The notes under the pieces: generated by a model
Database searches by the model: none
Told to the model about the DNA's origin: nothing
The model's input: only the letters and a program-made list of their open reading frames with translations
From: Enterobacteria phage AH67C600_Q5
Length of the DNA stretch: 38,824 nucleotides
Reading direction: 5' to 3' (one strand)
Sequence record: MZ833439.1
Made by a program: the position numbers and the translations under genes
Part shown: piece by piece, positions 11,730 through 19,218 of the stretch
Numbering within the stretch: the first letter of the stretch is position 1
Layout: each line of letters opens with the position of its first letter

Positions 11730-11752
11730 TAATACGACTCACTAAAGGAGAT
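11730..11752 (+). promoter_or_regulatory. T7-RNAP class II promoter phi4.3 (taatacgactcactaaaggagat)
   Basis: 23-mer promoter core 7 bp upstream of the HNH ORF at 11759. Confidence 0.8.
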
Positions 11753-11758
11753 AGCCAC

Positions 11759-12187
11759 ATGAGCACTGACTTAGAGAGACTTGAAAGATTCTTGAAGATT
11801 GATGGCGATTGCTGGCTGTTCACTGGTGGCAGGGCACATGCCTACGGAGTCTTCTGGATGGGCGGTAAGAATCACAAGGCACATAGGGCTGCCTTCGAAC
11901 TTTATAATGGGAGGAAACCTAATGGTGTTATATTACACTCTTGTGATAATCCTTTGTGCTGCAATCCCGCTCATCTATCTGAGGGAACTCAGCTTGATAA
12001 TATGGTGGACATGGTTAGAAAGGGACGCTCGTTAAAGGGTACGAAGAATCCCGCATGTAAGTTTACCGATGAGGATGTCAAGTTCATTCAGGAGTCTACC
12101 ATGAAGGTCAAAGATTTAGCCACTCTATTCGGAGTGACGCGCCAAACAATAACCAAATGGAGGAAACATCATGTTCAAACTGATTAA
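11759..12187 (+). CDS. HNH homing endonuclease between phi4.3 and gene 4.3
   Basis: 142 aa from ATG 11759 (MSTDLERLERFLKIDGDCWLF...HSCDNPLCCNPAHL...); the track ORF 11594..12187 is an artifactual N-terminal extension into gene 4. Confidence 0.85.
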   Translation: MSTDLERLERFLKIDGDCWLFTGGRAHAYGVFWMGGKNHKAHRAAFELYNGRKPNGVILHSCDNPLCCNPAHLSEGTQLDNMVDMVRKGRSLKGTKNPACKFTDEDVKFIQESTMKVKDLATLFGVTRQTITKWRKHHVQTD

Positions 12188-13170: not shown

Positions 13171-15129
13171 ATGATCGTTTCTGACATCGAAGCTAACGCC
13201 CTCTTAGAGAGCGTCACTAAGTTCCACTGCGGGGTTATCTACGACTACTCCACCGCTGAGTACGTAAGCTACCGTCCGAGTGACTTCGGTGCGTATCTGG
13301 ATGCGCTGGAAGCCGAGGTTGCACGAGGCGGTCTTATTGTGTTCCACAACGGTCACAAGTATGACGTTCCCGCATTGACCAAACTGGCTAAGTTGCAATT
13401 GAACCGAGAGTTCCACCTTCCTCGTGAGAACTGTATTGACACACTTGTGTTGTCACGCTTGATTCACTCCAACCTGAAAGACACCGATATGGGCCTGCTG
13501 CGTTCCGGTAAGTTGCCCGGTAAACGCTTTGGGTCTCACGCTTTGGAGGCGTGGGGCTATCGCTTAGGTGAGATGAAGGGTGAATACAAGGATGACTTTA
13601 AGCGTATGCTTGAAGAGCAAGGTGAAGAATACGTTGACGGAATGGAGTGGTGGAACTTCAACGAAGAGATGATGGCCTATAACGTTCAGGACGTTGTGGT
13701 CACTAAGGCTCTCCTTGAGAAGCTACTCTCTGATAAACATTACTTCCCTCCTGAGATTGACTTTACGGACGTAGGATACACTACGTTCTGGTCAGAATCC
13801 CTTGAGGCCGTTGATGTTGAACATCGCGCTGCGTGGCTACTCGCTAAGCAAGAGCGCAATGGATTCCCGTTTGACACGAAAGCAATCGAAGAGTTGTACG
13901 TAGAGTTAGCTGCCCGTCGCTCTGAGTTGCTACGTAAATTGACCGAAACGTTCGGCTCGTGGTATCAACCTAAGGGTGGTACAGAAATGTTCTGCCATCC
14001 GAGGACTGGTAAACCACTTCCCAAGTATCCTCGCATTAAGACACCTAAAGTTGGTGGTATCTTTAAGAAGCCTAAGAACAATGCACAGCGAGAAGGCAGA
14101 GAGCCTTGTGAACTGGATACCCGTGAATACGTTGCTGGTGCTCCGTATACTCCAGTAGAGCACGTAGTGTTTAACCCTTCGTCTCGTGACCACATCCAGA
14201 AGAAACTCCAAGAGGCTGGATGGGTCCCAACCAAGTACACCGATAAGGGTGCTCCTGTGGTGGACGATGAGGTACTCGAAGGAGTACGTGTAGACGACCC
14301 TGAGAAGCAAGCTGCTATCGACCTCATTAAAGAGTACCTGATGATTCAGAAGAGAATCGGTCAGTCTGCTGAGGGAGACAAGGCGTGGCTTCGTTACGTT
14401 GCCGAGGACGGTAAGATTCATGGTTCTGTTAACCCTAATGGAGCAGTTACGGGTCGTGCTACCCATGCGTTCCCCAACCTTGCGCAAATTCCGGGTGTAC
14501 GTTCTCCTTATGGTGAGCAGTGCCGCGCTGCTTTTGGCGCTGAACATCACTTAGATGGACTTACAGGTAAGCCTTGGGTTCAGGCTGGTATAGACGCCTC
14601 CGGTCTGGAGTTACGTTGCTTGGCCCACTTCATGGCTCGCTTTGATAACGGTGAGTATGCTCACGAGATTCTTAATGGTGACATTCACACTAAGAATCAG
14701 ATAGCTGCCGAATTGCCTACCCGTGATAACGCCAAGACGTTCATCTATGGGTTCCTTTATGGTGCTGGTGATGAGAAGATTGGGCAGATTGTTGGTGCTG
14801 GTAAAGAGCGCGGTAAGGAACTCAAGAAGAAATTCCTTGAGAACACCCCTGCGATTGCGGCACTCCGAGAGTCTATCCAACAGACACTCGTTGAGTCATC
14901 TCAGTGGGTAGCTGGTGAACAGCAAGTCAAGTGGAAACGCCGCTGGATTAAAGGACTTGATGGGCGCAAAGTCCATGTCCGTAGTCCTCATGCTGCCCTG
15001 AACACCTTGCTGCAATCTGCTGGTGCTCTTATCTGCAAACTGTGGATTATCAAGACCGAAGAGATGCTCTTAGAGAAAGGCTTGAAGCATGGCTGGGATG
15101 GGGACTTTGCGTACATGGCATGGGTGCAT
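13171..15129 (+). CDS. 5: DNA polymerase (gene 5) exon 1, codons 1-653
   Basis: Family A polymerase near-identical to T7 gp5 up to ...[11 protein letters not shown], then leaves the T7 reading frame; the uninterrupted ORF stops 8 codons later at 15153. Confidence 0.95.
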
Positions 15130-15730
15130 AAACTATCTCATTGTGCACATTAAATCTGGTGAACTCGGTGAAACCCTTCTAGGGCAATACCGAGCCAAGC
15201 CATAGGGAGGATATATGAGAGGCAAGAAGTTAATCCTTGCGACCACAGAGAGTGGTTGTATCATCCCTACGTCACACAAACTTAATACTGATGGTTATTT
15301 CCGAAAGAAGACGAACGGTGTCCTAGAGATGTATCACAGGACAGTCTGGAAGGAACACTACGGAGATATACCAGAAGGGTATGAAGTAGACCACAAGTGT
15401 AGGAACAGGGCGTGCTGTAACGTAGAGCACCTCCAGTTATTAGAAGGTTCTGAGCATACAGTCAAGACAAACAGGGAACGATACGCTGACCGTAAAGATT
15501 CCGCGAAGGAATACTGGTTGGAGACTGGATGTACAGGAACACACTTAGGTGAGAAGTTTGGTGTAACGTTCTCTGCCGCTTGTAAGTGGATTAGAGAGTG
15601 GAAGGCGTAGAGACTATCCGAAAGGAGTAGGGCCGAGGGTGAGATTCCCTCGTTACCCGAAGCGCCAGACAGTCAACTCAAAGGCTGATGATATAGTCCG
15701 ACACTCCTAGCAATAGGAGAATACAGAAAG
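15130..15730 (+). mobile_element. Group I self-splicing intron interrupting gene 5, carrying an HNH ORF
   Basis: 601-bp interruption between codons His653 and Asp654; exon 1 ends in U (15129); candidate internal guide gtgcac at 15143-15148 can pair with exon end gugcau including a U-G wobble at the splice site; intron ends in G (15730); exons join in frame to a 704-aa product. Confidence 0.85.
15215..15610 (+). CDS. Intron-encoded HNH homing endonuclease
   Basis: 131-aa ORF with RBS gggagg upstream; motifs EVDHKCRNRACCNVEHL typical of HNH endonucleases; lies entirely inside the intron. Confidence 0.85.
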   Translation: MRGKKLILATTESGCIIPTSHKLNTDGYFRKKTNGVLEMYHRTVWKEHYGDIPEGYEVDHKCRNRACCNVEHLQLLEGSEHTVKTNRERYADRKDSAKEYWLETGCTGTHLGEKFGVTFSAACKWIREWKA

Positions 15731-15886
15731 GATGAGATTCAGGTAGGTTGTCGTACCGAAGAGATTGCTCAGGTGGTCATTGAGACTGCACAAGAGGCGA
15801 TGCGCTGGGTGGGAGACCACTGGAACTTCAGGTGTCTTCTGGATACCGAAGGTAAGATGGGTCCTAACTGGGCCGTATGTCACTAA
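15731..15886 (+). CDS. 5: DNA polymerase (gene 5) exon 2, codons 654-704
   Basis: DEIQVGCRTEEIAQVVIETAQEAMRWVGDHWNFRCLLDTEGKMGPNWAVCH*, matching the T7 gp5 C-terminus. Confidence 0.93.
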   Translation, partial: DEIQVGCRTEEIAQVVIETAQEAMRWVGDHWNFRCLLDTEGKMGPNWAVCH

Positions 15887-18559: not shown

Positions 18560-18826
18560 ATGGGTAAGAAAATTAAGAAGGCCGTTAAGAAAGTCGTTAA
18601 GGAAGTGGCTCGTCCGATTAAACAGGTTGCTGGTGGCATTGCCGGTCTGGCTGGCGGGCAAGTATTGGAAGTTCCACAGGCTGCTGCACAGATTGTTGAC
18701 GCGCCTGAGAAAGAGGTTTCCACTGAGGACGAAGCACAGACCGAAAGCGGACGTAAGAAAGCTCGCGCTGGTGGTAAGAAGTCATTAAGTGTGGCTCGTA
18801 GCTCAGGTGGGGGTATAAATATATGA
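18560..18826 (+). CDS. 7.3: gp7.3 tail-associated protein
   Basis: 88-aa Lys/Ala-rich ORF MGKKIKKAVKKVVKEVARPIKQVAGGIAGLAGG... Confidence 0.85.
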   Translation: MGKKIKKAVKKVVKEVARPIKQVAGGIAGLAGGQVLEVPQAAAQIVDAPEKEVSTEDEAQTESGRKKARAGGKKSLSVARSSGGGINI

Positions 18827-19218
18827 CAGATTGTATCGAGTGGACTGGCTACCTCACAAAAGATGGGTACGGCGAAACTCGACTGAATGGTGTCAAGTTT
18901 AGGGTTCATCGTCTAGAATGGGTGAAACAAAGAGGCCCAATACCTGAAGGTCTAGTTGTTCGCCATAAGTGCGATAACCCTAAATGTTACAATATCGAAC
19001 ACCTTGAGCTAGGAACAACTCAGGATAACACTAGAGATAGGGTCTTGAGGAATAGAAGCGCAAAGGGAGTACGTAATGGTAATTCCAAATTAACACCCGA
19101 TGTCGTTCTGGCAATACGTGCAAGTAGTAAGACCCACAAGCTGATAGCCGAAGAGTTCGGTGTATCCAAATCAGTTGTGACACAGATACGAGCACGTAAG
19201 ACATGGAGGCATATCTAA
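18823..19218 (+). CDS. 7.7: HNH homing endonuclease (T7 gene 7.7 position)
   Basis: 131-aa ORF with HKCDNPKCYNIEHL motif and C-terminal HTH-like region. Confidence 0.85.
   Translation: MTDCIEWTGYLTKDGYGETRLNGVKFRVHRLEWVKQRGPIPEGLVVRHKCDNPKCYNIEHLELGTTQDNTRDRVLRNRSAKGVRNGNSKLTPDVVLAIRASSKTHKLIAEEFGVSKSVVTQIRARKTWRHI

Follow-up and report, generated by a model that had tools for sequence, protein, structure and literature searches.

The introns of T4 td, nrdB and nrdD (sunY) are phage group I introns that occupy conserved sites of nucleotide-metabolism or replication genes and hold a homing endonuclease open reading frame (ORF) in a peripheral helix. The polymerase introns of SPO1, SP82 and Bastille (I-HmuI, I-BasI) are likewise phage group I introns with a looped-out ORF at a conserved site, and they specify HNH enzymes from within the gene of a family A polymerase (PMC3428280). 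Both groups share these traits with the element described here but differ from it in insertion site (Pol I 674/676 as opposed to 881), endonuclease lineage and host. Site 881 is occupied in phages PhiI and W31, for which self-splicing introns of subgroup IA2 with an HNH ORF in P6a were reported (Bonocora & Shub 2004, cited in PMC3428280); this subgroup is recognised by the helices P7.1 and P7.2 being joined by G-U-A (PMC3428280). A polymerase intron of K1F is mentioned in PMC4925675, and gene 5 is written as a two-piece join in the GenBank records of 13a (EU734174, together with an 'endonuclease'), K1F (DQ111067) and MeretOppenheim_Bas102.

Gene 5 of Enterobacteria phage AH67C600_Q5 (GenBank accession number MZ833439.1) carries an element of the same kind. 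The whole stretch of DNA analysed, 38,824 nt, is called the window below. Taken together, the evidence makes it about 95% probable that a mobile group I intron, of subgroup IA2 and of the PhiI/W31 lineage, occupies positions 15130-15730, with splicing and homing predicted on that basis. The features of the locus are as follows.

13171..15129, plus strand, gene 5 (DNA polymerase) exon 1, codons 1-653 (ORF list; Pfam DNA_pol_A, 133 bits; T7 gp5 alignment)
15130..15730, plus strand, group I (IA2-type) intron, 601 nt, with omega-G15730 as its last base (Rfam RF00028, covariation, near-identical phage copies)
15151..15153, plus strand, in-frame TAA of the exon 1 frame, just 5' of P3, ending unspliced translation before the ribozyme core
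15205..15210, plus strand, Shine-Dalgarno-like GGGAGG, 4 nt 5' of the ORF start codon (sequence reading)
15215..15610, plus strand, HNH homing endonuclease gene, I-TslI orthologue, 131 aa, in the P6a loop (Pfam HNH_3, PHROG 6254, I-TslI cluster)
15731..15886, plus strand, gene 5 exon 2, codons 654-704 and TAA stop, starting GAT GAG (Asp654, Glu655)

Exon 1 ends at 15129 with GTG CAT (His653), the polymerase sequence running up to ...AYMAWVH, and its final six bases, GTGCAT (15124-15129), form the exon strand of P1. From 15731 onward the sequence is GAT GAG ATT CAG GTA GGT, which is translated as DEIQVG.... Joining 13171-15129 to 15731-15886 gave a product of 704 aa, the last 129 aa of which aligned without gaps to residues 576-704 of T7 gp5 (PDB chains) with 127/129 identical, so that H653|D654-E655 lies exactly at the junction. 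Phage EG1, whose gene 5 has no intron, matches the spliced window colinearly, 420 of 450 nt being identical, again without gaps. Moving the junction one base to the left or right fails to rebuild CAT|GAT, which leaves a single possible splice point, and the spliced junction is predicted to read ...TGGGTGCAT|GATGAGATT.... An earlier reading made from the letters of the window (the sequence-only reading) had gene 5 broken after His653 and resuming at Asp654-Glu655 in motif C, on either side of a 601-bp insert at 15130-15730; the coordinates and the T7 alignment agree with the former, and the lengths and ends of the insert were verified on the sequence.

In the unspliced frame, exon 1 continues through seven unrelated codons of the insert to the TAA at 15151-15153, giving an ORF of 660 aa. 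An in-frame stop before P3 recurs in 11/12 homologues despite their differing P1 loop lengths, an arrangement that fits the usual one in which ribosomes are kept off the ribozyme core. The same stop bears on whether the insert might be an intein or a group II intron, since elements of both kinds also insert at conserved motifs of polymerases and frequently encode a homing nuclease, HNH or other. The chance of either is effectively nil: the polymerase frame of an intein would not meet a stop after seven codons, and the HNH ORF, out of continuous frame with exon 1, begins from a start codon and ribosome binding site of its own, while no group II family of Rfam was returned for 15050-15800 at E values up to 10 and the insert is far too short for an ORF-bearing group II intron.

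A default Rfam scan of the whole window returned nothing at gathering score. In a permissive scan of 15050-15800, the full RF00028 model (1-253) was matched at 15120-15720, on the plus strand only, with 35.4 bits and an E value of 2.8e-7; the curated gathering score of this family is 50 bits, below which the window intron falls. Thus the covariance-model search that the sequence-only reading had proposed as a check gave a full-length match, but at a score under the curated threshold. In the RF00028 alignment the ORF region appeared as an insertion of about 440 nt, P2 was deleted, and P6 and the 5' strand of P7 were misplaced inside the ORF. The misplaced P7 strand, the deleted P2 and the ORF insertion probably lower the score, and an ORF-less relative from Salmonella phage Arash passes the gathering score with 58.9 bits. 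Because of the misplacement of P6 and P7 5' the structure was built by hand, and because the Rfam score lies under the gathering threshold the structural case rests on comparative analysis. The elements of the structure are given here in 5' to 3' order of their first strands, P1 and P10 including exon bases.

15124-29 / 15143-48, plus strand, P1, exon GTGCAT with guide GTGCAC, U15129·G15143 at the splice site
15137..15148, plus strand, internal guide sequence, P10 and P1 strands combined
15137-42 / 15731-36, plus strand, P10, guide CTCATT with 3' exon GATGAG
15155..15196, plus strand, core 5' half (P3 5' strand, P4, P5, P6 5' strand; covariation, MFE fold)
15155-61 / 15663-69, plus strand, P3, 5' strand TCTGGTG
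15165-70 / 15188-93, plus strand, P4, pairs in 100% of cells
15174-77 / 15181-84, plus strand, P5
15194-96 / 15604-06, plus strand, P6, 5' strand GCC
15200-03 / 15598-601, plus strand, P6a, CCAT with GTGG, enclosing the ORF
15610..15730, plus strand, core 3' half (P7 5' strand to omega-G; covariation, MFE fold)
G15610, bulged A15611 and GACTA 15612-16 / TAGTCC 15694-99, plus strand, P7, pairs in 100% of cells
15617-26, plus strand, P7.1, GAAA loop
15627-29, plus strand, GUA (GTA) linker
15630-58, plus strand, P7.2
15670-87, plus strand, P8
15704-19, plus strand, P9, GCAA loop
15730, plus strand, omega-G, invariant in 12/12

Covariation was assessed on 12 homologues with the hand-built P1-P10 structure, which comprises 65 pairs in 14 helices and 755 cells. 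Copies at the same site were retrieved from 11 phages (13a, K1F, Bas102, VSG32, CHRF_10037, PC192, Aeromonas PT2, Edwardsiella WAG25P1, ECBP2, PAS59 and Vibrio Vp_R1), and the ORF-less Arash relative was retrieved as well; Citrobacter phage NS1 was left out, its record being rearranged around the element. The lineages represented are Teseptimavirus, Kayfunavirus, Teetrevirus, Berlinvirus, and Aeromonas, Edwardsiella, Gordonclarkvirinae and Grimontviridae phages. In this 12-sequence alignment standard pairs filled 96.3% of the 755 cells and compensatory changes were found in 28 of the 65 pairs. None of 500 shuffles reached any of the five measures, which together with the E value of the RF00028 match excludes chance, and in controls with the 3' partners slid by 1-3 columns only 37-46% of cells paired and 5-8 pairs were compensatory. 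MFE folding of the RNA without its ORF independently recovered P1, P4/P5, P7.1, P7.2, P8 and P9 (z = -1.96). The group I secondary structure (P1-P9) on which the sequence-only reading had depended can therefore be drawn in full from 15130-15730, with covariation support.

The splice-site helices follow the exons of each host. The junctions of the 11 same-site copies are alike: ...TGCAT closes the 5' exon, GAYGAR opens the 3' exon, and G is the final base of the intron. The U·G pair of P1 is present in 11/11 sequences, and its outer pair is G-C in eight and A-U in three; where the host exon has AUGCAU instead of GUGCAU, the guide has GUGCAU instead of GUGCAC. For P10, 90.6% of cells pair, compensatory changes occur in 2/6 pairs, and a 3' exon with GAUGAA or GAC is accompanied by a P10 strand altered to match. 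The 5' exon ending in U, the guide gtgcac at 15143-15148 with its U-G wobble and the terminal G at 15730 had all been picked out beforehand, and each has its counterpart in the alignment, as U15129·G15143 is paired throughout and the final G does not vary.

P3 shows compensatory changes in 5/7 pairs with 100% of cells paired, and reads UCUGGUG/CGCCAGA in the window, CUUUGUG/CGCAAAG in the Aeromonas phage and CUCAUUG/CGGUGAG in the vibriophage. P8, P9 and P7.2 have compensatory changes in 3-4 pairs each (four in P7.2). The least regular parts are the last pair of P5, which fails in 4/12 sequences, and P6a, a helix of only 4 bp in which 89.6% of cells pair; the Edwardsiella phage has ACUG/CAGU at the position of P6a, together with a 6-nt insertion. 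The hand-built structure of the window intron has no P2. The sequences AGAGACUAUCC and GAUAUAGUCCGA, in which P7 is flanked by J6/7 and J8/7, are nearly invariant among the homologues, and the putative guanosine-binding site lies in P7, at G15610-C15699, bulged A15611 and G15612-C15698. P7.1 and P7.2 stand between P7 and P3' and are linked by GUA, as in subgroup IA2, and GAGUAGG is invariant.

A different account would have a free-standing HNH cassette splitting the gene, its RNA left unspliced, with polypeptides of about 660 and 51 aa assembling into an active enzyme. In some T4-like phages polymerase or reductase genes are indeed split by homing endonuclease insertions. The two polymerase halves are annotated as separate CDSs in the records of pO111, ECBP2 and the Edwardsiella phage, and split genes of such a kind exist in phages, to go by the title of a reference in PMC10448857. 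It is nevertheless highly improbable here. No start codon in the frame of exon 2 lies at or close to 15731, and the sole nearby ATG (15732) opens another frame that closes after four codons; the split would part His653 from Asp654-Glu655 within one active-site strand. A passive spacer would not keep a group I fold through compensatory changes such as the 28 found in the non-coding parts of the insert, and the Rfam group I model is matched over its full length.

The low Rfam score and the name 'hypothetical protein' given to the HNH protein in the source record could also speak for a decayed, non-splicing intron or an assembly artefact, with gene 5 being a pseudogene. This too has very little to recommend it, for the core helices, the invariant positions of J6/7, J8/7 and P7, and omega-G are all preserved and do not differ from those in many independent isolates, the ORF is not truncated, and phages sequenced independently carry copies 98-99.7% identical. 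T7-like phages cannot do without gp5, and the window appears to be a whole phage genome, which argues against a pseudogene. The intron of AH67C600_Q5 is thus real, and the sequence-only reading had described it correctly as an element already known.

The ORF at 15215-15610, which had also been recognised as an internal HNH ORF, encodes the protein UAW06986.1. It matched Pfam HNH_3 over residues 40-82 with 61.3 bits (cut-off 24.8; E 6.6e-17) and PHROG 6254 'HNH endonuclease' with an E value of 1.2e-46, while a PDB sequence search with the protein gave no meaningful match. It shares a 90% cluster with AAV53690.1, 'I-TslI [Phage PhiI]', and is identical to I-TslI of PhiI at 112 of 131 positions (85%; 95% similar) without gaps, both proteins being 131 aa long. 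The PhiI/W31 introns agree with that of the window in gene, in site (Pol I 881 corresponds to T7 His653|Asp654), in the GUA-joined P7.1/P7.2 and in the location of the ORF in P6a. The difference from PhiI, as compared by protein, is one of sequence divergence only, the HNH protein of PhiI resembling that of the Bas102/VSG32 variant. The element is therefore nearly identical to a characterised one, and the earlier view that it belongs to a known class is borne out by the I-TslI cluster and by the same site in the published work (cited in PMC3428280).

The ORF is interlocked with the ribozyme. The codons at its end (Trp-Lys-Ala-stop) also serve as the 3' strands of P6a (15598-601) and P6 (15604-06), and P7 begins with the G (15610) of the TAG stop. 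The C-terminal ...WIREWKA/V is near-invariant in the homologues, which fits the use of the same codons as P6a and P6 strands. At the other end of the ORF, GGAG of the Shine-Dalgarno-like sequence is kept in 12/12 homologues, the ORF-less Arash copy included. In the 5' region of P6a, CAUA (15201-04) is complementary to UAUG (15214-17), a stretch containing the HNH start codon, and the loop between them would hold the Shine-Dalgarno sequence; the same alternative hairpin has 6 bp in Vp_R1, ECBP2 and PAS59 and 4 bp in the window. Such a hairpin, weak in the window and not uniformly predicted, might couple ribozyme folding to endonuclease translation. A conserved hairpin hiding the HNH ribosome binding site or start codon was considered but found no support, as local folds differ between homologues and the window pairing has only 4 bp.

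The HNH endonuclease of gene 5.3 in T3-like phages (T3, phiYeO3-12, Citrobacter phage SH2 gp23) is a relative found beside the same target: SH2 gp23 is 51% identical to the intron protein over 90 aa, and its gene starts 10 nt past the end of the intron-less polymerase gene (SH2; PMC4925675). It differs in lying outside any intron and in its length of 110 aa: missing are the 40 C-terminal residues, whose codons in the intron copy also supply P6a and P6 with their 3' strands. The gene 5.3 enzyme is reported to cut intron-less gene 5 at the position of I-TslI (Bonocora & Shub 2009, Curr Biol 19:223).

The window holds two further HNH_3 ORFs on the plus strand, both free-standing. The first, at 11759-12187 (142 aa; Pfam 3.3e-12, with a weak C-terminal HTH), follows the end of gene 4 (11712) and precedes gene 4.3 (12171). 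In the close relatives HZP2 and pO111 the alignments have a gap over about 11750-12165, so that this ORF is probably another mobile homing-endonuclease cassette. The second, at 18823-19218 (131 aa; Pfam 3.9e-16), is just 5' of gene 8, at the position of T7 gene 7.7; the HZP2 alignment has a gap at about 18820-19195, and pO111 is only 52-73% identical there, with a different ORF.

A BLAST search against phage genomes located copies of the intron in 39 phage records at 80% coverage or more, and as 160 records matched the exon flanks, its presence is patchy (39/160). At the identical junction the intron is 98.8% identical to that of the window in 13a, 99.7% in HZP2 and 99.0% in pO111, and these are copies of the same 601-nt element that differ in nothing of substance. 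Identity to the window in the gene 5 exons is mostly 90-95% for pO111 and 13a, and 93-100% for HZP2. The variant of Bas102 and VSG32 has about 86% DNA identity to the window intron, and the K1F-type copies are 80% identical and 598 nt long, with TAA directly at the first intron codon. The island of 98-100% identity formed by the intron, its patchy distribution and the homologous free-standing HNH gene beside intron-less polymerase genes of T3-like phages are consistent with mobility, although identity above that of the flanks could in part reflect the double constraint of RNA and protein and not recent transfer.

The exon ends of the alleles were also compared. Intron-bearing alleles always end exon 1 with GTGCAT or ATGCAT, and the two intron-less alleles have GTCCAC (EG1, two synonymous differences in the P1 strand) and ATTCAT (SH2). 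These differences could stem from the requirement of P1, from co-conversion or from resistance to the endonuclease.

In distant mode the BLAST search also brought up the same intron, with an I-TslI-like ORF, at the identical His|Asp-Glu junction in phages unrelated to T7, at 66-72% DNA identity. These carriers are ECBP2 and PAS59 (77-79 kb, Gordonclarkvirinae), Vibrio Vp_R1 (112 kb, Grimontviridae) and the podophages Aeromonas PT2 and Edwardsiella WAG25P1; in each the guide sequence is matched to the host exon, and in their records the polymerase appears at best as two separate CDSs, without a join. The ORF-less relative of the window ribozyme, in Salmonella phage Arash (181 kb, OQ632216.1; positions 1049-1320 of the fetched locus), has P2 and retains an AGGAGG...ATG remnant within a long P6a hairpin. 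It is inserted in motif B of a family A polymerase, at ...AKSVTF|GLLYGA in the codon equivalent to Phe762 (E. coli Pol I numbering), the 5' splice site being placed by the reading frame and thus putative. Arash uses none of the polymerase intron sites 674, 676 and 881 listed in PMC3428280. Whether the ribozyme-plus-I-TslI lineage has undergone repeated transfer across families and, in Arash, one ectopic transposition is evenly poised on these data.

In IMG/VR, at least 120 contigs carry a AGAGACTATCC...GATATAGTCCGA core, a generic P7...P7' with a spacing of 51-81 nt, which suggests that IA2-type introns are very numerous in phages. The viral-contig pattern with a shorter gap gave seven unrelated shorter introns.

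By analogy with group I chemistry and the published work on PhiI and W31, the following course may be proposed for AH67C600_Q5. Phage RNA polymerase would transcribe gene 5 together with the intron, and the ribozyme with helices P1-P10 would form from the intron RNA. P7 would bind an external guanosine (at G15612-C15698, beside the bulged A15611), which would attack after U15129, held in its U·G wobble by the guide GUGCAC; P10 would then align the 3' exon, and the freed exon end would attack after omega-G15730. CAU would thereby be joined to GAU, restoring the active-site stretch His653-Asp654-Glu655 and the 704-aa polymerase. Splicing would be obligatory for the phage, since unspliced RNA yields only the 660-aa protein without the carboxylates of motif C. 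The ORF in the P6a loop would be translated from its own ribosome binding site to give the HNH endonuclease, which in a mixed infection would cut gene 5 alleles that lack the intron, close to where it inserts, and repair off an intron-bearing genome would copy the intron into the cut allele.

For AH67C600_Q5 the finding matters mainly to annotation: gene 5 should read join(13171..15129,15731..15886), as the essential polymerase would otherwise seem to end early, at 660 aa, and the product of 15215-15610, now a 'hypothetical protein', should become an I-TslI-type homing endonuclease. Being a further copy of a selfish element known from textbooks, seated in a catalytic-site codon, the intron adds nothing new on group I introns as such. 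Its wider value is modest and comparative, in that the diverged copies suffice for a covariation-supported structure and for tracing moves between phage families. The distribution across families and the ORF-less copy at a second polymerase site, both outside the window, are the only parts that might be new; if repeated transfer and transposition did occur, the element would be a natural record of a group I intron changing both host and target site.
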